Below, piece by piece: positions 16,567 through 64,000 of a DNA stretch of 64,000 bases. Numbering within the stretch: position 1 is the stretch's first letter; each line of letters opens with the position of its first letter. The notes below the pieces were generated by a model. That model worked only from the letters and a program-made list of their open reading frames with translations, searched no databases and was not told where the DNA came from. The DNA is from Fimbriimonadia bacterium. Its GTDB lineage: Bacteria; Armatimonadota; Fimbriimonadia; Fimbriimonadales; JABRVX01. The stretch lies in NCBI GenBank assembly GCA_041483895.1, contig JBGPGO010000016.1, forward strand, positions 14,952 through 78,951, in the 5' to 3' direction. Both the position numbers and the translations under genes were made by a program.

Positions 16567-17493
16567 ATGTCCCGCGTCACAGTCATCCTAACCAGCTACA
16601 ACCACGAGCGCTATCTGCGGCGGGCGATCGAGAGCGTTTTGGCGCAGACGCGAGCGGCCGATGAACTGATCATCGTAGATGATTGCAGTCGTGATGGTTC
16701 GGGAGAGATTGCACGCGAATACGCCGACCGGGCGCGGTTGCTGCTGCTGGAGCAGAATGTGGGGACCTATGCCGCGCTCAATCGCGCCATCGAAGCGGCG
16801 ACTGGGGAATGGATTGCGATCCTGAATTCCGACGACTTCTGGATGCCGCGAAAATTGGAAGCACAGGTTTCGGGACTGGACTGCGACTTCAGCTTCTCGA
16901 ACGGGCATTTTGTGGACGACAATGATAGCCCTTGCGAATATCAGGCCTTTGGCAAGAAGCTGAGCGGTGTGTTCACAGATCCGCCTCCGGCCGGGGTCTC
17001 CTGCCGAATGATAGATCGCCTGATCTACCACAACTATTGCTTCCCCAGCTCTGTACTCCTTAAGAGGTCGCTGTGGGAAGCGGCAGGGAAGTTTCAGGAG
17101 AATTTGATATGTTTGGGAGATTGGGACCTGTTCTTGCGAATGGCGAGGCTCACCAAATTTTGCTATGAGGACAGCGACTTGGTAGGCTATCGCGTGCACG
17201 ACCGGCAGACAAGCCGAAACATCGATCAGATGAACATGGAGGAGGTTGATATTCGCGAGCGATTGATCCTTGGGCACGAGGAAGAATATCTGGCGACGGC
17301 GGACAACCCTGCGTCGATGCGAAAAGCGCTGGCACATTCCGCCGCGGCACTCGGCACGCAATACCACATGCAGGGCAGGGCAGGGGACGCCCGGCGCATG
17401 TATCTTCATTCCCTCGCCCGCAACCCGATGCGATGGAAGAGTTTGCTGCGCTTCTTTCTTGCGTGCGCCAAATCAAGAATCTCCTCCCCGTAA
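16567..17493 (+). CDS. Glycosyltransferase family 2
   Basis: SYNHERY, VDDCSRD, LNSDD, DWDL. Confidence 0.9.
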   Translation: MSRVTVILTSYNHERYLRRAIESVLAQTRAADELIIVDDCSRDGSGEIAREYADRARLLLLEQNVGTYAALNRAIEAATGEWIAILNSDDFWMPRKLEAQVSGLDCDFSFSNGHFVDDNDSPCEYQAFGKKLSGVFTDPPPAGVSCRMIDRLIYHNYCFPSSVLLKRSLWEAAGKFQENLICLGDWDLFLRMARLTKFCYEDSDLVGYRVHDRQTSRNIDQMNMEEVDIRERLILGHEEEYLATADNPASMRKALAHSAAALGTQYHMQGRAGDARRMYLHSLARNPMRWKSLLRFFLACAKSRISSP

Positions 17494-17549
17494 CGCTGCC
17501 TTCCAGGCGGCATTCAACCTTGCCAGAGCGCTGCCTTCCAGCCGGCATT
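17490..17549 (+). repeat. GTAA-tagged REP-like repeat family C, two direct copies
   Basis: GTAACGCTGCCTTCCAGGCGGCAT at 17490-17513 and GCGCTGCCTTCCAGCCGGCAT just downstream. Confidence 0.75.
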
Positions 17550-17558
17550 GGCTCGGAG

Positions 17559-20504
17559 CTAAGAAGAAAGTTGGGCGTCCAAGACTGCGGGGGCATGGGC
17601 CAATGCGTCGGCCAGCTTCGACGGATCTTTGCCGCCTGCCTGCGCAAAATCGGGCCTGCCGCCTCCGGAACCGCCCGCGATTTTGGCGACTTCGCGCACC
17701 AGGTTGCCGGCGTGCGCGCCCATGGCCTGAGCTTCCGGCGATACTTTGGCGACGAAGAGAACCTTGCCATCCGACTCCGCGCCGACCAGCACCACTGCCC
17801 CTTTGTTCTGGTTGGCGAGGTTGTCTGCCACAGTCCCGGCGGCGCTTGCTGGCAGGCCTTCCAGCTTTTGCGTGACCAGCGGCACACCTTTTACATTTGT
17901 GATTGTCGCGCCGCTTTGCCCTGCTCCGCCGCTGATCGCCTTTTCCAACTGCTGCCGCAGGTCGCGAGCCTCTTGGTGCAATTTTTCTACCGCCGTTTTG
18001 AGATCATTTGGGTTGGATTTCAGACCCGTAGCGATGTCTTTGACGAGGCTGTCGCGTTGCAGCAGATAATCATATACGCCTTTGCCCGTGACTGCCTCGA
18101 TGCGGCGCACTCCGCCCGCTGCGCTGCTCTCATGCGTGATTTTGAACAGGTCGATGTTGCCCGTGTTTTTCACATGACAACCGCCGCATAGCTCGATGGA
18201 AAATCCGGGCACTTCGACCATTCGCACCGTGTCGCCGTACTTCTCGCCGAACAGCGCCATCGCACCCTTCGCCTTTGCCTCCGCGATTGGTACGTCGTTA
18301 TAGATGGTGACGTCGATTTCGCGGAAGATCCACTCATTGACGAGTCGCTCCACTGCGTTCAACTCCTCCGGTATCATAGCGGCGCCGTGGGTGAAGTCGA
18401 ATCGCAGATAGTCCGGGGCGACGAGCGACCCTGCTTGCCGCACATGATCGCCCAGGGTTTTTCTGAGCGCGGCGTGGAGGAGATGTGTTGCGGTGTGGTT
18501 GCGGACGATGTTCCGGCGTCGCTCCGCGTCCACCTCTGCGGTGACATCCTGGAACAGGTAACCGGATTTCAGCAGTTCAATTTGCTCTTCTCTGAAGGGC
18601 TCCGTTCTGGAGGGCTCCGTTCTGGAGGGCTCCGTTCCATCGGAGCCATTTTCTTTATCCCCCTCGGCTCCGATGGAACGGAGCCCTCCAACTATCGGCT
18701 TGTGGCTGCGGACGACCTCGCACCGGTGCCACCAGATGCCTTCGGCCTTCTGCGTATCCACGACGCGGAGCTCGAATGCGTCGCAGAAGATTCGGCCCGT
18801 ATCACCGACCTCGCCACCGGATTCGGCATAGAACGGCGTCTCGGCGAGGGCGACATCGAACTGCTTCGCGGGCTGATCGTCGGCGAGGAAGACGGGGCTG
18901 ATTTGTACAAGTTTCGATTGAATACTTGTACAATCATATCCGACGAAATCCGTGTACGGCTTAGCATCACTTGCGGTGAATAGCATAACTCTATTGGTAA
19001 ATACCTGACCAGTGATTTCCTGGTGAGAGCGGGACCTTTCCCGTTGATCTTTGAGCGCGTGTTCGAAACCTCGCTTATCGACGTTGCCACCAAGCCGCTC
19101 CGCTAGTTCTTCTGTTAGTTCTAATGGGAAACCGAATGTGTCATATAGTTCGAAGGCGATCGCACCAGGCAGAATCCATGGCTCGAAGATTCCGATTGCC
19201 GACAGCATGGTAGGGCCGAATTCTAGAGTCACAACTTTCGCCGTGCCGTCTGGCATCCGGATGGCGAGTCCTATTTTCGGCGAGATACCATCGTAACCAA
19301 TACCTCCTGGCTCGGACCCAGGAACATTGCTAGCCCACAACTGGTTCATCAGATGACCAGTCTTTAAATGAAAGTGAATGGCTCCATCAGTAACCGTTCG
19401 TCTAAATAATGACTCCTCACTGTCAAGGACTGTCTTGATTTGATCAAACTGGTCAGAAAGCTCCGAATAATGATCGCCTAGGGTTTCTCTTGCGACTAAG
19501 GCGACCTTGGACAAGAAGTTCGCCCTAAATTGCAAGTAGAGCTGACCCTTGAGCACGGCCCGCCGTATTAGTCTGCGCAGAACATATCCTCGTCCTGTGT
19601 TAGCTGGAAATACACCGTCCGCAATGCAAAACGAAGCTGCGCGGAGGTGATCCGTGATAATCCGTGCGGCGGCAAGTGCCGATGGATCGGATAAGTCATT
19701 CCCCGATAGCTCCGACACGCGGTCCATGATCGGCTTCATCGTATCGATCTGATAGACATCGGAAAATCCGCCCAGCACCGTGGTCGTTCGCTCCAGCCCC
19801 ATGCCGGTATCGATGCACGGCTTCGGCAGCGGGACCAACTCCACATCTTTGGTCAGATCATCCGGATCCGACCGCCGCTCGAACTGCATGAAAACGTTGT
19901 TCCAAATCTCCAGCCACCGACCAGCGTCCGCATCCACCAAATAGTCCCCCGCCAACTCGGAATCCGGCACGGTCTGAAAAAAGATCTCGGAACAAGGGCC
20001 GCAGGGTCCGTTGGGGCCCTCCGACGGCGCGCCCGCCGGCCAAAAATTTTTGTCCTCGTCTAACCGCACAATCTTCGATTCCGGCAGACCCAGCTTGCGC
20101 CATATGGCAAACGCCTCATCGTCATCCTTATAGACGGTGACGCACAGCTTGGCCGGATCCAGCGCCAGCCATTGCGGCGAGGTGAGAAATTCCCACGACC
20201 ATTTCAGCGCATCTTCCTTGAAATAGTCGAAGATGCTGAAGTTCCCGAGCATTTCAAAAAATGTAAGGTGCGATGCATTCCCAACCTCTTCAATATCGGT
20301 CGTCCGAAGGCATTTTTGGCAACTGGTGATCCGCGGGAACGGCGCCTTGGCCGCGCCGCTGATGTACGGCTTGAACTGGACCATACCCGCCGATGTGAAC
20401 AAGAGCGAGGGGTCGTCCGGCACTAGGCTGTCGCTCGGCAGGCGATGATGGCCCTTGCCGTCGAAAAACTCCAGGAATTTGCTGCGTAGCTCTCGCGCGT
20501 TCAT
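17559..20504 (-). CDS. alaS: Alanine--tRNA ligase with two internal insertions (981 aa)
   Basis: FTSAGMVQFK, FFEMLGNFS, IDTGMGLER, LYDTFGFP, HTATHLLH, ELCGGCH, GGGRPDFAQAGG. Confidence 0.98.
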   Translation of the reverse strand: MNARELRSKFLEFFDGKGHHRLPSDSLVPDDPSLLFTSAGMVQFKPYISGAAKAPFPRITSCQKCLRTTDIEEVGNASHLTFFEMLGNFSIFDYFKEDALKWSWEFLTSPQWLALDPAKLCVTVYKDDDEAFAIWRKLGLPESKIVRLDEDKNFWPAGAPSEGPNGPCGPCSEIFFQTVPDSELAGDYLVDADAGRWLEIWNNVFMQFERRSDPDDLTKDVELVPLPKPCIDTGMGLERTTTVLGGFSDVYQIDTMKPIMDRVSELSGNDLSDPSALAAARIITDHLRAASFCIADGVFPANTGRGYVLRRLIRRAVLKGQLYLQFRANFLSKVALVARETLGDHYSELSDQFDQIKTVLDSEESLFRRTVTDGAIHFHLKTGHLMNQLWASNVPGSEPGGIGYDGISPKIGLAIRMPDGTAKVVTLEFGPTMLSAIGIFEPWILPGAIAFELYDTFGFPLELTEELAERLGGNVDKRGFEHALKDQRERSRSHQEITGQVFTNRVMLFTASDAKPYTDFVGYDCTSIQSKLVQISPVFLADDQPAKQFDVALAETPFYAESGGEVGDTGRIFCDAFELRVVDTQKAEGIWWHRCEVVRSHKPIVGGLRSIGAEGDKENGSDGTEPSRTEPSRTEPFREEQIELLKSGYLFQDVTAEVDAERRRNIVRNHTATHLLHAALRKTLGDHVRQAGSLVAPDYLRFDFTHGAAMIPEELNAVERLVNEWIFREIDVTIYNDVPIAEAKAKGAMALFGEKYGDTVRMVEVPGFSIELCGGCHVKNTGNIDLFKITHESSAAGGVRRIEAVTGKGVYDYLLQRDSLVKDIATGLKSNPNDLKTAVEKLHQEARDLRQQLEKAISGGAGQSGATITNVKGVPLVTQKLEGLPASAAGTVADNLANQNKGAVVLVGAESDGKVLFVAKVSPEAQAMGAHAGNLVREVAKIAGGSGGGRPDFAQAGGKDPSKLADALAHAPAVLDAQLSS
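18591..18690. repeat. Family B palindromic repeat inside alaS
   Basis: Perfect 25-bp inverted repeat 18623-18647 / 18666-18690 plus a 3x15-bp tandem at 18591-18635. Confidence 0.92.
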
Positions 20505-20525
20505 GATGGAGCCGGGATTCTACCC

Positions 20526-20579
20526 GTAACCCTGCCTTCCAGGCGGCATTGGTCGTTGCCGGGAGGATGCCAGCGTTAC
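20526..20579. repeat. Family C repeat, inverted pair
   Basis: GTAACCCTGCCTTCCAGGCGGCAT...TGCCGGGAGGATGCCAGCGTTAC. Confidence 0.8.
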
Positions 20580-24759: not shown

Positions 24760-25500
24760 ATGACAAGCGGGACAGCTCTAACGAAAGAGCAGCGCGACTA
24801 CCTGCTAGAGTCCGTCATTCCGTACGAGTTAGTAGGCGTAATTGACGGGGCATCAAGGACGGCAAATCCCAAACTGGACCAGCAGATGCGGAATCATGTC
24901 CTCGATTCGTTCGCCATCCACGCAAGGAATTTGTACGATTTCTTCTTCCCCGGACCAAACCGAAGGGTCGGGGACATCACCGCAGACGCGATCAGCCCTG
25001 GGTTCCAGCCTGTCAAGGACCACAAATTGGACCAGCAGGACGTGTTTGTCAAAGCCAGCACGCTTGTTGCCCACATTTCGGTCGAACGCGTGAATAAGCT
25101 GATCAATCCTGAGTACACAGAATGGCAGCACTGGGGTGTAACTCGCATCGCCGCGTTCTTCTACAATCTTGGCTGCCAATTCTATAAAAGCACTGGTCTG
25201 ACGTATCCTCTACCGAAGGCGACTCCGACACCGAAGTGTCACGTGATCCTGCTTTCTGACATTGAGGATGCAGGTTTGGAAATTGGCTTTGTAGGAGTTG
25301 TCGTTGACGTGCCAAGAGCAGGAGAAGTAGAGGTCGGCTTTGCTGTAAATGGCGGACTGGGATGCATATCAAAAAGTGTTGTGGCGAGCGAATCGTATTT
25401 CCTCGTACTCGCTCAGTACGATGTGTCAGGGTCTAGGGTATCGGCGGGCGGTGGGTGGTCGGAGGGAGTGAACCCCGACACATCGCAGTTGGCGCCATGA
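24760..25500 (+). CDS. Hypothetical protein: helical N-domain, DUF4926-like C-domain, repeat-derived tail
   Basis: 246-aa ORF; VILLSDI...GL..G.VGVVVDV....VEVGF resembles DUF4926; last ~27 codons cross a family A repeat. Confidence 0.6.
   Translation: MTSGTALTKEQRDYLLESVIPYELVGVIDGASRTANPKLDQQMRNHVLDSFAIHARNLYDFFFPGPNRRVGDITADAISPGFQPVKDHKLDQQDVFVKASTLVAHISVERVNKLINPEYTEWQHWGVTRIAAFFYNLGCQFYKSTGLTYPLPKATPTPKCHVILLSDIEDAGLEIGFVGVVVDVPRAGEVEVGFAVNGGLGCISKSVVASESYFLVLAQYDVSGSRVSAGGGWSEGVNPDTSQLAP
25423..25481 (+). repeat. Family A repeat (59 bp)
   Basis: GTGTCAGGGTCTAGGGTATCGGC...GAACCCCGACAC. Confidence 0.8.
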
Positions 25501-27073: not shown

Positions 27074-27108
27074 GAACACCACGGCCACTTGGTGAATGCG
27101 GACCGGAT

Positions 27109-27167
27109 GTGTCGGGGTCTTGGGTATCGGCGCGCGATGGGTGGTCGGAAATAGTGAACCCCGGCAC
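27109..27167 (+). repeat. Family A repeat (59 bp)
   Basis: GTGTCGGGGTCTTGGGTATCGGC...GAACCCCGGCAC. Confidence 0.85.
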
Positions 27168-27226
27168 ATCGCGGGCGGGGGGTAGGCGGCCAGTTCGGGG
27201 CCGGTATCCGGCGCAACAATTGGTCA

Positions 27227-27285
27227 TATAGGACTTATAGGACTTATACGACCTATAGGACCTATGCGGCCTATTGGACCTATAA
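27227..27285 (+). repeat. 9-bp tandem array TATAGGACY x6
   Basis: tataggact tataggact tatacgacc tataggacc tatgcggcc tattggacc. Confidence 0.9.
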
Positions 27286-27304
27286 CTCCGGAGGACTGGT
27301 GCCC

Positions 27305-27334
27305 TTGACGGGGGAGTGGGCCTTCTGATACGCT
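27305..27334 (+). promoter_or_regulatory. Putative sigma-70 promoter, leaderless
   Basis: TTGACG-N18-TACGCT ending 6 nt before ATG 27341. Confidence 0.55.
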
Positions 27335-27340
27335 TTCCCC

Positions 27341-27892
27341 ATGTCCGAAGAGTTGCTGCCTGCTCACGGCGGCTATCGCAATCTGAAAGCTTTCCAAAAT
27401 GCGGAGATCGTGCATGATGGCACGGTGGAGTTTTGCAAACGATTCCTGAGGGCAACGGATCGAACATCGGACCAGATGGTGCAAGCGGCGCGGAGCGGAA
27501 AGCAGAACATCGTGGAAGGAAGCGCGATAAGTGGGACATCGCGTGCGTCGGAGCTGAAATTGATTGGTGTCGCACGTGCAAGCCTCGAAGAACTGCTGAA
27601 TGATTATTTGGATTTTCTCCGGCAGAGGGACTTAGAGGTTTGGGAGAAGGAGCATCCGAAGGCGGTTTTTATCCGGAAGTTGGCATATAGGACGAATAGG
27701 TCTTATGGGACCTATAGGACTTATATTGAGGAAAAGCCTGGTGATACCGCCGCCAACACGCTGATCTGTCTGATTCAGCAGACCTGCTATCTGCTCGATC
27801 GGCTGAAGCGGCAGTTGTCGCAACGCCTGCTCGAAGAGGGTGGCATCAATGAGCGGATTTATCAAGCGAGGCGGAAGCAGCGCGGCTACTGA
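27341..27892 (+). CDS. Four helix bundle protein with suffix domain (Avd/IVP-like superfamily)
   Basis: HGGYRNLKAFQ, DQMVQAARSGKQNIVEGS, VARASLEELLNDYLDFLRQR, ANTLICLI, EEGG..ER. Confidence 0.9.
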   Translation: MSEELLPAHGGYRNLKAFQNAEIVHDGTVEFCKRFLRATDRTSDQMVQAARSGKQNIVEGSAISGTSRASELKLIGVARASLEELLNDYLDFLRQRDLEVWEKEHPKAVFIRKLAYRTNRSYGTYRTYIEEKPGDTAANTLICLIQQTCYLLDRLKRQLSQRLLEEGGINERIYQARRKQRGY

Positions 27893-27906
27893 ACACGAAT
27901 TGGTCG

Positions 27907-27947
27907 TATAGGTCCTATAAGTCATATACGTCCTATAAGACCTATAG
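27907..27947 (-). repeat. 9-bp tandem array, inverted relative to 27227-27285
   Basis: tataggtcc tataagtca tatacgtcc tataagacc tatag; overlaps the pepV stop codon. Confidence 0.85.
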
Positions 27948-29327
27948 CGAGGCGAGGCGATACAGGATGTGCGCGTAGATTTTGGATAGCCTGATATAAG
28001 AAGCGATGGCGATGCGTTCGTTGGCCTCGTGCCCGGGGCCGTCGCCGGGGAAGCCCGCGCCGATGGCAACGGTATTGGGGACGGCCCGCGCATAGGTGCC
28101 GCCGCCCATCGTGCCCGGCTCCAACTTCTCTATGCCCTCGTCCTTGCACACGGATAGGATTGTCTTCACCGGCTCCCTGTCGAGCGGCACAAACAGCGGC
28201 TTGCTGTCCGAAAACTCCTTCAGCTCCCACCCATGCTTTTCGCGCATTTTCGCGTTCTTCTCCAACAGCATGTCGCCGGTCCACTCGACGGGATATCGGA
28301 TGTTGTACAGCGCCTCGATCACTCCATCGTGAATGGAAAGAAGGCCCCAGTTGGAGGTCAGCTCCCCGGCCACCTCGTCGCGGCCATGGATGCCCAGCCC
28401 CACGCCGCCCGTGTCGCCGGTCGCATAGATGGGATCGATCCAGTCGCTCCCGCCGGCCAGCGGCAGATCGGTCAGGACGCGGAACAGGCGGTTGACGGCG
28501 CTGTCCCCGCAAAACGGAGCGGCCCCATGCGCGGGCTTGCCTTGCGCCTTGATCGTGATTTGGTCTCCGGCGCGGCTGTACGTGATGTTCTTGTCCCAGC
28601 ACTCGCCGAGAACTTCCATCGCCTTGTCCAGGTCTTTGTCGGCGCCGGTCAGGGTTGCGGAGGCATATTGCGGCACGATGTTCGGCCTGCTGCCCGCCTC
28701 CCCGCTCACCAATTTCAAACCCTCTGCGATCGGCTGCTTCATGGTCAGCGTTAGGTTGGCGATACCCTTTTCGGCATATATCAGTGGAAATCCGGCGTCG
28801 GGGGCGAAGCCGTAGGTCGGGGCCTCCTCGTGCTCGAAATAGTGCTTGACGCAGCGGAACCCGCTCTCCTCGTTGCAGCCGAAAACGATACGGACGCGGC
28901 GCTTGATCGGGACCCCTGTCTCTTTCAGTGCGCAGGCGGCGAAGTAGGCGGCAAAGCTGGGACCCTTGTCATCCCCTGCCCCGCGGGCGTAGATATATCC
29001 GTCGTCTATGGTCGCGCCGTACGGGTCATATTTCCAGCCGTCGCCCTCCGGCACCACGTCCAGGTGGCAGAGCGCCATCACCATCTCCGGCCCTTCGCCG
29101 AACTCCGCGTGACCGGCATAGCCGTCCAGGTTCTTGGTGCGGAAACCGGCTTTTTCGGCGAGGCTGAGGGCGTGGTCGAGCGCGCGGCGGCATTCGGGGC
29201 CGAATGGGGCGCCCGGCGCTGGGTCGGCCTCTTTACTGGGGATTCTCAGTTGGTCTTGGAGGGCTTTGACCATCTCGTCCTGATGGTTGTCTATCCATTG
29301 TTGGAGTTGCGTTACGGCGGGGTCCAT
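27942..29327 (-). CDS. pepV: Dipeptidase PepV (M20 family)
   Basis: HLDVVP, RGAGDDKGP, GCNEESG, PDAGFPLIYAEKG, GGGTYAR. Confidence 0.92.
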   Translation of the reverse strand: MDPAVTQLQQWIDNHQDEMVKALQDQLRIPSKEADPAPGAPFGPECRRALDHALSLAEKAGFRTKNLDGYAGHAEFGEGPEMVMALCHLDVVPEGDGWKYDPYGATIDDGYIYARGAGDDKGPSFAAYFAACALKETGVPIKRRVRIVFGCNEESGFRCVKHYFEHEEAPTYGFAPDAGFPLIYAEKGIANLTLTMKQPIAEGLKLVSGEAGSRPNIVPQYASATLTGADKDLDKAMEVLGECWDKNITYSRAGDQITIKAQGKPAHGAAPFCGDSAVNRLFRVLTDLPLAGGSDWIDPIYATGDTGGVGLGIHGRDEVAGELTSNWGLLSIHDGVIEALYNIRYPVEWTGDMLLEKNAKMREKHGWELKEFSDSKPLFVPLDREPVKTILSVCKDEGIEKLEPGTMGGGTYARAVPNTVAIGAGFPGDGPGHEANERIAIASYIRLSKIYAHILYRLASL

Positions 29328-29367
29328 GGCGAGACAGTTCTGCCCGGGGGGCGGGTGTCCTTCCAGA

Positions 29368-29587
29368 GTGATGGGGTCTTGGGTATCTGCTGACCGGGGA
29401 TATCGGCGGACGAGGACCCCAACACAACAGCCATTTGGCTACTCCGGAGTGTTGGGGTCTTGGGTATCTGCGGATCGGGGATATCGGCGGACGTGTACCC
29501 CAACACATCAACCCTTTGGCTACTTTGGAGTGTTGGGGTCTTTGGTATCTGCAGACCGGGGATATCGGCGGACGTGTACCCCAACAC
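29368..29587 (+). repeat. Three tandem family A units, 81-bp period
   Basis: 58-bp units at 29368, 29449 and 29530 separated by two mutually similar 23-bp linkers. Confidence 0.92.
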
Positions 29588-29601
29588 AACTTCATCCTTT
29601 C

Positions 29602-29625
29602 ATGCCGGCTGGAAGCCAGCGTTAC
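29602..29625 (-). repeat. Family C repeat
   Basis: Reverse complement GTAACGCTGGCTTCCAGCCGGCAT. Confidence 0.8.
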
Positions 29626-34074: not shown

Positions 34075-35412
34075 ATGAAAACTCTTTCCACCGTCCTGGC
34101 CGTCTCGGCATTGGCAGTCGTCTCCGGCCAGGCGCAAACGCTGTGGAACCACGAGCGGTTGTCCAATGAAAGTCTGTTCGCGGGACAGAGCACGAACTGC
34201 TTCATCAACGCAAACGGTGACGTGGCGTTTACAGCGAGCACATTGAGTAGTTACCAAAGCGCCTGGAAATATCATTCTGGCACTGGAACGCTGATCAATC
34301 TCAACCAAGCGTACCTCGGAACGGCCTCCACCGGAACGAGCTACGGAATCAATGCCTCCGGCGAGGTCGCGTGGGTGGGCGAAACGGCCAGCTCACTCTC
34401 TATCAACGCCGACGGCCACGATTTCTACGCACCGCTCTTCCCGCCGGACACGAATAGGAGCCACGTCACGATTCGGGGAATCGACGACGCGGGTGATCCA
34501 TTCTGGTTGTATCAAAAATCCGGCGTCTCCCGGGTGTTCCAAGGGGGGATGGAGATCTCCGGCGGCGCGACGATATCGGCTGTGATGCTTTATGGGACAA
34601 TCGGCAAAGGTGACACCCTGTATCGAGCGACAGATTCGGCCGGAAATATCAATCTTTACAAGAACGGCACGAACTTCACGGCCCCTCTTCTCGGTGATCT
34701 GCAGCTAGCTCCCGAAGGGGTTCTTGGCGTCAACGGCAGCGTTCTTTGGGCCGCGCTCGGATCGACGACGGATGGACGTTTCGACATGTTTCTCAACGAC
34801 CAGAACCTGACCAAAGGGCTGTTTCCCACCATGAAGGGGGGGCATCCCGAGGCGATCAACTCATCGGAACAATATCTGTGGATCCGCTACGATATGGACA
34901 ACTCGGCGCACATGATGAAGGGGATGGAAGACCTGACAGCGGAACTGCCGGAGCTTGGCATCGACGGCGCCGGGCAATTGAGGAATTACATCAATGATAA
35001 CGGGGATGTGTTCTGGGAAGCAGTGAGCAGCCAACAATATGGTTTCATGGCCATACTCAACGGCAAGAATCTCACGACAGATATCGTGGGAATCCCCACC
35101 GATTTCCACATGACAGGTTTGGACGGTTCCGGTAATGGTGTTTGGTATGCGTCGGGTCCCAAGGTTCCTCAACGCAGCGTCTTCGTTAATCAGTTCAATC
35201 TTTCCGCAGACGCGTACGGCGGCTTCAACTATGGTGCGGCCGCTGGGCTCGCTGTGGGCGTCAACGGCCAAGTGCTTTGGACGGCCCAGGATCCTGACGG
35301 CACGTCCTCCGTCTGGCTCTCCACCCCCGTCCCGGAGCCGGGGATCACCGTCCCCGCGATGCTGGTTGCCGCGGGGCTGTGGCGAAGGCGGCCCATCATG
35401 CGCCGAGCTTGA
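34075..35412 (+). CDS. PEP-CTERM exported protein with beta repeats
   Basis: AAGGAG before ATG 34075, signal peptide, repeated IN..G.V.W, C-terminal VPEP-TM-RRR. Confidence 0.85.
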   Translation: MKTLSTVLAVSALAVVSGQAQTLWNHERLSNESLFAGQSTNCFINANGDVAFTASTLSSYQSAWKYHSGTGTLINLNQAYLGTASTGTSYGINASGEVAWVGETASSLSINADGHDFYAPLFPPDTNRSHVTIRGIDDAGDPFWLYQKSGVSRVFQGGMEISGGATISAVMLYGTIGKGDTLYRATDSAGNINLYKNGTNFTAPLLGDLQLAPEGVLGVNGSVLWAALGSTTDGRFDMFLNDQNLTKGLFPTMKGGHPEAINSSEQYLWIRYDMDNSAHMMKGMEDLTAELPELGIDGAGQLRNYINDNGDVFWEAVSSQQYGFMAILNGKNLTTDIVGIPTDFHMTGLDGSGNGVWYASGPKVPQRSVFVNQFNLSADAYGGFNYGAAAGLAVGVNGQVLWTAQDPDGTSSVWLSTPVPEPGITVPAMLVAAGLWRRRPIMRRA

Positions 35413-36349
35413 CCCGCAGCGCGTTAGCAACGACGGAAACCTTCGCCTCCAAGTAGGGGGCCGGCTCCCCATCGATCTGGCACAGGGGTCCGGCGTCGCA
35501 GCGGATTTGGAACGACGTTCCGCGGAACACCTCAACGCGGCGGCTGCGGTCTGCAGTGGCCAGGCTGCCCGCCAGAGCCGGACCCATGATCCCGCCCTTC
35601 CACACGCCGCCCGGCCGCACTACCGCCAAGTCCAAGAGTCCATCGGAAATCGACGTCTCTTTCGACACCCGCATCCAGCCGCCATATTTTGGCGCGTTGA
35701 CGGCGGCCACGAGCAGGGCTTCGCCCTCGAATAGCAGTCGAGTGTTCGGGTCTTTGGTATCGGCGTTCGGAAGGGTATGGGTAGCAGTGGACCCGAACAC
35801 ATCAGGGTTGCTTCCCTCTCTTGTCGGCTCTGATGGAACAGAGCCCTCCACTGTCACGTGCCAGGGTTTGACGCGAAATTGGGCGGCGATGGCAGCCAGC
35901 ATGAATGCGCCTCGGCCCAACCACGGCTTCCAGCGATCAGCCATCGGTACCACGATCCCGTCTATGCCGAAACCGACAGAGGCCACGAACCAACGGTCTC
36001 CGTAACGTCCCAAATCTATCGTGGCCGTGGTGGTTCCCAGGCAAATTTCGGCGGCCCGCTGGTGATCGTTCACGGGTATGTGCAGAGCCTGCGCGAGCAC
36101 GTTACCGGTCCCGCAGGGGATGAGACCGAGGGCCGCGTCCGTCCCAACCAATCCGTTGATAACCGAGTTGACCGTTCCATCGCCGCCGACCGCAATTACC
36201 GTGTCGTAGCGGGATGCTAGGTCGCGGGCAGCCGCCGTCGCCTCCAAGGAGTCACGCGTTTCGCAAAGCTCCGCATCCGGAAACAGCCGGTGCATTGCTA
36301 GGTTTCTCGCCCGCCGCGCACCCCGATTCCACACTACCCCCACGCTCAT
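35396..36349 (-). CDS. Diacylglycerol/lipid kinase family protein with repeat-derived insertion
   Basis: GGDGT, P.GTGN, IDLG, YGG, DGLLD, QIDGE; start placed at ATG 36349. Confidence 0.9.
   Translation of the reverse strand: MSVGVVWNRGARRARNLAMHRLFPDAELCETRDSLEATAAARDLASRYDTVIAVGGDGTVNSVINGLVGTDAALGLIPCGTGNVLAQALHIPVNDHQRAAEICLGTTTATIDLGRYGDRWFVASVGFGIDGIVVPMADRWKPWLGRGAFMLAAIAAQFRVKPWHVTVEGSVPSEPTREGSNPDVFGSTATHTLPNADTKDPNTRLLFEGEALLVAAVNAPKYGGWMRVSKETSISDGLLDLAVVRPGGVWKGGIMGPALAGSLATADRSRRVEVFRGTSFQIRCDAGPLCQIDGEPAPYLEAKVSVVANALRVKLGA
35742..35849. repeat. Family A (35742-35800) and family B (35826-35849) repeats inside the lipid kinase gene
   Basis: GTGTTCGGGTCTTTGGTATCGGC...GACCCGAACAC and GGCTCTGATGGAACAGAGCCCTCC. 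Confidence 0.88.
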
Positions 36350-39311: not shown

Positions 39312-40218
39312 CAATCCAATCCGGCGGTCGATCCGCCGTGAGGGATAGCGAGTGGCCGGTAATCGGATGCTCGAGGTCTAGCCGAAAGGCGCGCAGCGCC
39401 TGGCCGTCTAGAGACCCGACGCTCCGATTATCGGCTTTCTTGGTTCCATACACTTTGTCGCCGAGGATGGGAAGGCCGATGGAGGCCAGGTGGACGCGGA
39501 CCTGATGGGTCCTGCCTGTGTGCAGCGTGGCGATGAGAACGGCATGCCCGATAAGTCTCTCCGTAACTTCGAAATCCGTTGTTGCCGATCTGCCGTCCGC
39601 AACAATGGCCATTTTCTTTCGGTCATTCGGGTGCCGGCCGATCGGCGCATCGACCCGGAACCGGTCCTGCTGTGGGCTTCCAACGACGATACATTCGTAC
39701 TTTCGCGATACCTTGCGCTCTTGAATCATCCTGGCAAGTTTCGCGTGCGTCGCATCTGTTTTCGCGACGAGCATCAGCCCGGCAGTGTCCTTATCCAAAC
39801 GGTGGACTATGCCAGGCCGGAAGCTGCCGGCAGCCTCTGACAATGCGCCGCCTCGCCCCAGGAGCGCATTCACCAGAGTTCCCTGCCGGTTCCCCGCCGC
39901 CGGATGCACGACCATACCGGCCGGCTTGTTGATCACCATCATGAATTCGTCTTCGTACACGATGTCGAGCGGTATGTCCTCTGGAGTGAGGTTCTCGTCC
40001 GGCGGCGTTTCTCGGAGCTTCGCGCAAGTTACGATGTCGCCGGCCTCAAGTTTGTGGCTTGGCTTTGCCGGCCTCCCATTGACGAGCACTTCCCCCTCCT
40101 CGATCGCGCGCTGCAATCGGGAGCGGCTATGTTCGGGCAGCCGGTCGGCCAGGTAGCGATCCAGCCGGACGGCCGCTGCGATACTTTCGACGATAGATCT
40201 GTGCGTATTTGCCCCCAC
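39262..40218 (-). CDS. rluD: RluA/RluD family pseudouridine synthase
   Basis: S4 domain RLDRYL, NKPAGMVVHP, HRLDKDT, TGRTHQVRVH; start uncertain, GTG 40218 preferred. Confidence 0.92.
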   Translation of the reverse strand: MGANTHRSIVESIAAAVRLDRYLADRLPEHSRSRLQRAIEEGEVLVNGRPAKPSHKLEAGDIVTCAKLRETPPDENLTPEDIPLDIVYEDEFMMVINKPAGMVVHPAAGNRQGTLVNALLGRGGALSEAAGSFRPGIVHRLDKDTAGLMLVAKTDATHAKLARMIQERKVSRKYECIVVGSPQQDRFRVDAPIGRHPNDRKKMAIVADGRSATTDFEVTERLIGHAVLIATLHTGRTHQVRVHLASIGLPILGDKVYGTKKADNRSVGSLDGQALRAFRLDLEHPITGHSLSLTADRPPDWIVILAALRGVESSGQDR

Positions 40219-40372
40219 CCTAACCCTCCCCCGCAAGCGGGGGAGGGGATTTGCATGCTCCCCCACCCTCCACCGCAAGCGGGGGAGGGGATTAACCAGC
40301 CCCCCCTCCCCCACAAACGGGGGAGGGGATTCATCCGCCCCCTACTCTCCCCCTCAAGCGGGGGAGGGGATT
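40212..40372. repeat. Four tandem hairpins CCCTCCCCC(GCAAGC)GGGGGAGGGGAT (family E)
   Basis: Four GC-rich palindromes at roughly 40-bp spacing between rluD and the SRP RNA. Confidence 0.9.
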
Positions 40373-40402
40373 AATCTTCGCAATGGTTAAAGGCGGCAGG
40401 TG

Positions 40403-62879: not shown

Positions 62880-62968
62880 TGGAGGGCCCCGTTTGGAGGG
62901 CTCCGTTCCATCGGAGCCGTACGCGCATGCTGTGACGGAGCACAGCCCTCCAGGAACGGAGCCCTCCA
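62880..62968. repeat. Family B repeat cluster upstream of tRNA-Pro
   Basis: TGGAGGGCTCCGTTCCATCGGAGCC at 62894-62918 is identical to the alaS copy; variant and partial copies adjacent. Confidence 0.9.
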
Positions 62969-63000: not shown

Positions 63001-63077
63001 CGGGGTGTGGCTCAGCTTGGTAGAGCGCTGCGTTCGGGACGCAGAGGTCGGAGGTTCAAATCCTCTCACCCCGACCA
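63001..63077 (+). tRNA. tRNA-Pro(CGG)
   Basis: Cloverleaf CGGGGTG/CACCCCG, anticodon arm CTGCG-TTCGGGA-CGCAG, TTCAAAT T-loop, encoded CCA. Confidence 0.97.
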
Positions 63078-63090
63078 TCTTCCGTGTTGC

Positions 63091-63115
63091 GGCTGTGACG
63101 GAGCACAGCCCTCCA
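63091..63115 (-). repeat. Family B variant copy
   Basis: GGCTGTGACGGAGCACAGCCCTCCA, matching the copy at about 62929-62952. Confidence 0.8.
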
Positions 63116-63737: not shown

Positions 63738-64000
63738 CCGATGTCTCCAAGAAACCTATCGGCGAATCGGTGGAATAGCTGGAGTGATTTGTTAAGCTGC
63801 CGAAAGAGCCCCCCCCCCCCCCCCCCCCCCCACCGCGGGGGGGGGGTTTTTTTTTACCCCCCCCCCACCCCCCCCCCCCCACCCGGGGGGGGTGTTTTTT
63901 TTTAAACCCAACCCACCCCCCCAAACGGGGGAGGGGGTGCATATGTCCCCAAAGATTGAGGGTTGCCCGTCAAAGAGAAGAACCCCAGCCCCCACCAGCC

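Follow-up and report, generated by a model that had tools for sequence, protein, structure and literature searches.

A GGAG-footed REP doublet in frame in the alaS gene of a Fimbriimonadia bacterium, likely transposase-inserted and kept as a tolerated loop

How does a palindromic repeat come to lie, in frame, inside a housekeeping gene? The question is raised by alaS, the alanine--tRNA ligase gene in a 64,000-nucleotide stretch of a Fimbriimonadia bacterium genome (contig JBGPGO010000016.1, positions 14,952 to 78,951; hereafter the window, in whose numbering coordinates are given unless another contig is named). A first-pass annotation, made from the letters alone, had noticed a perfect 25-bp inverted repeat in this gene shortly before the motif HTATH and had proposed an independent, recently active coding-repeat system, with Rickettsia palindromic elements (RPEs) as the precedent. 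We arrive at a different reading, to which we give a probability of roughly 0.78: the insert is an inverted doublet of GGAG-footed repetitive extragenic palindromic (REP) sequences, i.e., a REPIN, which was likely inserted as single-stranded DNA by a REP-associated tyrosine transposase (RAYT) and likely kept as a tolerated, translated loop.

The insert in alaS

AlaS matches TIGR00344 over its full length (797 bits; cut-off 457) and carries the catalytic, editing, and C-terminal domains (PF01411, PF07973, and PF02272). The insert and its surroundings comprise the following features:

17559 to 20504, minus strand: alaS, alanine--tRNA ligase, 981 residues, single copy in the genome
18666 to 18690, minus strand: REP arm 1, a TGGAG foot with 7-bp stem and bulged loop, forward on the mRNA, encoding GGLRSIGA
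18648 to 18665, no strand: unique 18-nt spacer of the doublet, encoding EGDKEN
18623 to 18647, plus strand: REP arm 2, inverted, reverse on the mRNA, encoding GSDGTEPS
18608 to 18622, plus strand: extra 15-nt head half of the arm, encoding RTEPS
18593 to 18607, plus strand: second extra 15-nt head half, with one mismatch, encoding RTEPF
18483 to 18497, minus strand: HTATH motif, intact, residues 670 to 674, 31 residues past the insert

The two 25-bp arms are perfectly complementary, as the first-pass annotation had read them, and as RNA the inverted repeat folds at -66.9 kcal/mol (z = -8.2), a value that none of 200 shuffles reached. What had been described as a threefold 15-bp expansion does consist of three 15-nt units; the third (18623-18637), however, is the head of arm 2 itself, hence only two units are extra. 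In frame, the insert encodes GGLRSIGAEGDKENGSDGTEPSRTEPSRTEPFR (AlaS residues 606-638), which reads GGLRSIGA-EGDKEN-GSDGTEPS-RTEPS-RTEPFR, and we infer that it is translated. The HTATH downstream is presumably the editing-site motif.

An insert of this kind might be an assembly artefact, might be excised from the transcript, or might be bypassed during translation; the assembly is in draft state (43 contigs, 95% complete), and no single listed contig covers all 100 bases of the insert. However, overlapping contigs from four sequencing runs cover 18234-18639, 18422-18637, 18618-19145, and 18643-18917 without one differing letter (the assembly may derive from one of these runs, and all may stem from one campaign). 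Together they span both junctions, the tandem units, and the spacer, and no joint omits the insert. In four further runs (X5-X8), coverage of the insert was too thin to inform, and again no joint skipped it. Moreover, all in-gene copies of the repeat keep the frame, which would be unnecessary if they were removed. We consider this explanation extremely improbable.

Alignment of AlaS with its relatives, the check that had been proposed for finding the empty site, did find it: two genomes of the same family lack 29 residues at this position. The insert peptide was present in none of 29 aligned relatives (one row, G036, is unpublished, and no claim hangs on it alone). The closest homologue is 66% identical over the alignment, and the named homologues are mostly from Fimbriimonadia or other Armatimonadota. 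Since the distance from a GGQVGDTG-like motif to HTATH ranges from 50 to 92 residues in 105 homologues, compared with 99 in this AlaS, the insert site was already a variable loop. In an AlphaFold model whose fold matches solved AlaRS structures, residues 601-637 form a coil between a beta-strand and a helix, 31 residues upstream of HTATH, with a mean predicted local distance difference test (pLDDT) score of 48-49 over residues 611-630 and of 89 over the whole protein. The insert is thus predicted to be a disordered surface loop.

Other expansions were seen in AlaS. A second one of about 45 residues and of other sequence lies at about 19170-19370 (residues ~378-445), forms in part a beta-hairpin in the model (pLDDT 56-78), and occupies a site that hosts many different expansions in Fimbriimonadia. 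Unrelated repeat-like inserts occur in further Fimbriimonadia AlaS proteins (P0064, P0045, P0054, and L299 of G013). P0064, which has about five tandem units of ~21 residues within the catalytic domain, had matched motifs of the insert peptide; its repeat looks like another family and was set aside.

Copies of the arm across the genome and inside genes

Each arm consists of a (T)GGAG foot, a 7-bp stem, and a six-base top (an xTCCxx loop) whose bases 1 and 5 also pair, leaving a bulged T. We scanned the 3.95-Mb genome for this architecture, allowing a GGAG or GAAG foot, and obtained 53 arms, compared with none in either of two shuffles. All 53 have GGAG with a T before it, and the base preceding that T is most often C (24/53). 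Where the stem varies, its two sides do so in concert; among 21 hand-picked arms, already selected for pairing, six of eight pairs vary on both sides. Exact matches to the 25-mer of the alaS arm number 19 genome-wide; three shuffled 25-mers had no match within three mismatches. Rfam returned only miRNA-precursor models for the arm, far under their cut-offs, i.e., a generic hairpin.

Most of the 31 loci into which the 53 arms fall are tandem arrays or inverted doublets, the others being singles; doublets span about 59-86 nt, and their spacers are unrelated, differing at every site. Besides alaS, loci in the window include the following:

62880 to 62968, no strand: intergenic doublet with an identical arm (62894-62918), a variant inverted arm (62928-62952), and half-units spaced 14 and 16 nt
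63091 to 63115, minus strand: single variant arm just after tRNA-Pro (63001-63077)
35826 to 35850, minus strand: lone in-frame arm, encoding EGSVPSEP, within a YegS/DAGK-family gene (35396-36295, minus strand)

The first contains the intergenic 25-mer that had been reported beside tRNA-Pro; it is indeed identical to the alaS arm and lies 82 bases before the tRNA gene.

The suspicion that alaS is one of several housekeeping genes carrying the repeat in frame was also correct. Twelve genes carry internal, in-frame copies, at 14 of the 31 loci (our own gene calls, checked with family searches): alaS, carB, purL (two loci), ppx (two), dapA, hisF, the YegS/DAGK gene of the window, and genes for an MrfA-like helicase, an M14 peptidase, a GH127 enzyme, a rhamnosidase, and a 535-residue membrane protein, the last of which was not family-checked. 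One more locus sits at the end of a gene that we take, from its sequence type, to be nuoA-like, and the remaining 16 are intergenic or at uncertain gene starts. Among the eleven genes other than alaS, six were tested for empty sites, and three to four relatives provided one for each: carB, purL (first site), hisF, dapA, ppx, and the MrfA-like helicase gene. In one operon of this genome (C29:24835-27824), arms lie at the end of the nuoA-like gene and near nuoC- and nuoE-like starts, and purL (C5:179940-182378) has three repeat inserts, two of the GGAG family and one of another.

We then considered how the arms are read. All six frames of the arm are free of stops. The 15 forward coding arms read EG.. 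(ten) or GG.. (five) and never WRA.. (Trp-Arg-Ala), a distribution with a probability of 0.002 under equal frame use, and six of the eight reverse coding arms read G.DG. Short tandem half-units gave 13 spacings at eight of 15 coding loci, every one of 15 or 18 nt, whereas the other loci gave two, of 14 and 16 nt, at one of 16 (Fisher p = 0.006). Together, the frame bias and the frame-keeping lengths point to selection on a translated product, as sequence-level signs that inserts are translated and selectively filtered.

One alternative is that the inserts are kept for a function, either as an mRNA hairpin that tunes translation or stability or as a Ser/Pro/Glu/Gly-rich loop that modulates the editing domain. 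The great stability of the hairpin on the mRNA strand, the enrichment of half-unit expansions among coding copies, and the unmutated state of both alaS arms would fit this idea. However, the target genes are functionally unrelated, relatives manage without the insert, and in these relatives the variable loop at the site accommodates additional sequence of other, unrelated kinds; we think a function improbable. Under the tolerated-loop reading, the insert would be near-neutral for AlaS, having survived by virtue of the absence of stops in six frames, a net length that is a multiple of three, and a site that was a variable loop beforehand; later growth would have proceeded by duplicating the head half of the arm, 15 nt at a time, with only frame-keeping lengths surviving in genes.

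The frequency of in-gene copies is not the same everywhere. In other genomes, only nine of 47 candidate frames, drawn from at least 128 loci of which 48 had short flanks, were supported by Pfam, two of the nine doubtfully, and a long frame crossed the arm at one of 26 Armatimonadota loci (no Pfam check). A high coding share is thus not a fixed property of the family. We also asked how other repeats of this genome behave. Twenty-three repeat seeds occur at eight or more loci each, and 53 called genes have internal repeats, a seed-based count that misses several members of the GGAG family. Seeds with more open frames tend to have a larger in-gene share (rho 0.54, p 0.0075; 37/219 vs. 50/585 loci), which weakly supports the notion that more open frames lead to more in-gene copies, as the seeds overlap and two six-frame-open seeds are seldom in genes. 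With its 53 repeat-bearing genes and 23 seeds, this genome is a good case for mobile hairpins seeding protein loops, and in practice such inserts would distort marker-gene alignments and trees in Armatimonadota.

Kinship with REP elements and RAYT transposases

The arm pattern was absent from all 40 order-level relatives searched, in agreement with the proposed restriction to this lineage, and present in ten of 300 genomes of the phylum, seven of them from one genus and nearly all with a mismatched-stem variant. The system is nevertheless not an independent one, as had been supposed, since Verrucomicrobiota, Planctomycetota, and other phyla have hairpins of this family too, and intragenic REPs have been published. 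Our scan of GTDB contigs found at least 128 loci, which among the 80 listed were mostly from Verrucomicrobiota, Planctomycetota, and Lentisphaerae. In other phyla, the three free stem positions were exactly complementary in 134 of 164 pattern matches, where about 1 in 64 would be expected. In the Armatimonadota genus (G053, G079, G115, G161, G193, G202, and G220), the sibling arm with mismatched stem reaches 36 copies, and G161 also has a RAYT of the clade described next, with the mismatched-stem repeat beside it.

The link to a transposase comes from a Lentisphaerae contig (L124), on which doublets of the family lie on both sides of a gene for a REP-associated tyrosine transposase (NF047646, 89.7 bits; cut-off 80). 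We examined the best 80 of 299 confirmed metagenome relatives of this transposase. A strict hairpin was found within 600 bp at 32 of the 80 loci and at none in five shuffles, and two or more GGAG-footed hairpins were found at 57, compared with none for GTAG and one for GTGG.

How does this compare with known elements? PMC3733652 (Di Nocera, De Gregorio, and Rocco 2013) describes GTAG/CGTC REPs, hairpins of 20-40 nt with a 4-nt foot, that occur in frame within genes of many species as singles and dimers and add 7-30 residues to housekeeping proteins. Opitutus terrae (GTAG-17/18/19) contributes 70 rows, with purL twice; three tRNA synthetases appear overall, glycyl-tRNA synthetase in other species. 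The phenomenon is thus already known, and the alaS insert is one more intragenic REP. The GGAG family resembles these elements in being footed hairpins, single or in inverted dimers, in frame in housekeeping genes. In contrast, its foot is GGAG rather than GTAG/GTGG and supplies no TAG stop, its host belongs to the Armatimonadota, it expands by five-codon half-arms, and about 45% of its loci are inside genes. Its peptides are absent from the accessible part of the supplementary insert list of PMC3733652.

The family likewise resembles the REPINs or bacterial interspersed mosaic elements (BIMEs) that accompany RAYTs (PMC3333891, PMC8266576, PMC6006769, and PMC5581495), with which it shares inverted doublets, a variable spacer, a foot tetranucleotide, a bulge, tandem arrays, and, in other genomes, copies that flank an NF047646 transposase gene; it differs in that the cognate gene was not found in this genome and that its copies are frequent in coding DNA. 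The canonical GTAG-tagged families (GTAG-1 to -24) have GTAG or GTGG 0-2 nt before the stem, whereas the foot here is GGAG, and only five of the 53 arms could be read as GTGG at an offset of two bases. The element is therefore one that works like a REPIN and has the testable features of REPs without the GTAG/GTGG guide.

Biochemical work provides a route by which such a doublet could enter a gene. The E. coli transposase TnpA-REP binds the folded, single-stranded REP, requires the foot tetranucleotide, cuts C^T on either side, and joins strands, and tandem copies can assemble (PMC3333891); in the Marinomonas enzyme, a change of foot shifts the cut site predictably (PMC8266576). By analogy with these two enzymes, we infer that a cognate RAYT inserted the alaS doublet as single-stranded DNA and has since been lost from this genome or remains unassembled. 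The initial T of every arm, most often after C, fits a C^T cut but is no proof of one.

The RPEs that had been named as the precedent are a poorer match. An RPE is an element of ~150 bp with a conserved peptide that enters unrelated housekeeping proteins in frame at high frequency (PMC10969869), and the palindromic repeat and the unrelated targets are indeed shared. The arms described here, however, are of 25 nt, with a variable spacer, several frames in use, and a RAYT link. A related idea is that the insert is an RPE-type element or a miniature inverted-repeat transposable element (MITE), independent of REPs and moved by a DDE transposase. The doublet does have terminal inverted arms, and roughly half of the loci are coding, as are 'nearly half' of the RPEs according to PMC10969869. 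Against this, the unit is a 25-nt hairpin that is also found single and in tandem, the spacers differ at every site, and the family is associated with a RAYT clade; no flanking duplication was apparent at alaS by eye, where relatives are too distant to define the target. Such an origin is largely refuted and, in our estimate, very improbable.

A closer competitor is that REP-derived arms spread without any transposase after RAYT loss, through recombination, gene conversion, or replication slippage at hairpins. This would agree with the failure to find a cognate RAYT in the genome, with half-unit spacings of 14, 15, 16, and 18 nt that look imprecise, and with the 19 identical arms, which could reflect conversion. 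However, new doublets at unrelated sites without arm homology would be hard to form by homologous routes, and in a 95%-complete genome the RAYT gene may simply be unassembled. Spread of this kind seems unlikely to us, if less so than the other alternatives.

Several observations weigh against insertion by a RAYT and retention as a tolerated loop. Searches of this 95%-complete genome gave no RAYT of the cognate clade at E <= 1e-15, the best matches having 22-34% identity and E values of 1e-8 or weaker, and the genome's eight RAYT-like genes are each flanked by other repeats. The strict hairpin is missing from 48 of the 80 RAYT loci, which include near-duplicates and kin. At 20 Armatimonadota loci of related RAYTs, a perfect stem was found in only three; the closest of these loci mostly have the mismatched-stem GGAG repeat, and several weaker ones have other repeats. 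For the second purL site, the relatives do not provide a clean empty site. Counts of frame use are low and partly dependent (two arms lie in one ppx locus), the loci were hand-labelled as coding or non-coding, and Trp is present in two in-gene copies from other genomes, in other frames. Part of the low pLDDT of the insert is to be expected, since the segment has no homologues in the alignment. As for recent activity, the identity of the arms speaks for it, but the nearest AlaS is about 65-66% identical, no empty alaS allele was found in eight low-depth runs, and there is the missing cognate RAYT, such that recent activity is only partly supported.

The RAYT-like genes of this genome lie at C5:229682, C6:19328, C6:123209, C12:73942, C20:36204, C21:32187, C27:26308, and C3:72086, each among its own repeat family, several of which have no GTAG foot. 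They were considered as the cognate transposase (six PF01797 genes and two tblastn hits) and rejected, each being flanked by another repeat; a GGAG doublet lies about 1 kb from the C20 gene, outside the flanks proper. In a quick RAYT tree with an unresolved base, the five of these proteins that were included fall outside the L124 clade. Three apparent RAYTs between arms were likewise dismissed: C1:461969-462518 is the ppx gene with its two inserts, C5:181650-182080 is purL, and L084, with arms 1 kb apart, has no RAYT inside.

A broader proposal can be put forward tentatively, with the odds somewhat against it: the arms may belong to an undescribed REP class with a GGAG guide and a RAYT clade of its own, present across Planctomycetes-Verrucomicrobia-Chlamydiae (PVC) bacteria, Armatimonadota, and others, which would act as a generator of protein loops and whose transposase would have built the RTEPS repeats. 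Surveys based on GT[AG]G would have missed such a class; PMC6006769 defines REPs by that guide and reports atypical hairpins beside subclass 2.6. Loss of the TAG of the classical foot would have left the arm open in six frames, turning it into a loop generator that grows five codons at a time. The rules of PMC8266576 would predict cleavage at CT and CC for a GGAG guide, and these stand at both ends of the 15-nt unit, such that the transposase itself would have built the AlaS RTEPS repeats. The tie between coding palindromes and one particular transposase clade whose guide is non-canonical offers a natural test of the model in which the guide selects the cleavage site. GGAG has no occurrence in the main text of PMC3733652, PMC8266576, or PMC5581495, and in the accessible part of Table 1 of PMC2817692 it stands only within repeats headed by GTAG or GTGG. 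Literature searches, whose scope left out most subscription journals, returned no description of a GGAG family or of REPs in Armatimonadota. The GGAG guide was thus not found in print, within the accessible parts of these sources, and Figure 1 of PMC3733652, with its consensus sequences, and the figures and supplements of PMC6006769 may bear on its novelty.

Other repeats of the genome and the window

Repeats of other kinds are plentiful. A DnaE2-like gene (C8:64748-69256) has five seeds inside, the names of repeat-bearing genes in the seed survey having been judged by eye and not family-checked. Another repeat family flanks alaS on both sides, at 17484-17535 and 20520-20571. Three arrays of a 9-nt unit, one of them inverted relative to the others, lie at 27209-27954 and belong to a genome-wide family. 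Arrays of a C-rich/G-rich hairpin repeat occupy 40212-40374 and 63810-63941; the array near the contig end has degraded to poly-C/poly-G runs and is possibly low-quality sequence. Palindromic repeats of 67-81 nt at 2325-2471, 25420-25486, 27106-27172, 29362-29604, and 35739-35805 resemble those around the RAYT-like gene at C6:123209. Finally, the segment 54743-57440 contains a duplicated coding segment of ~1.43 kb, the copies being 74-79% identical.

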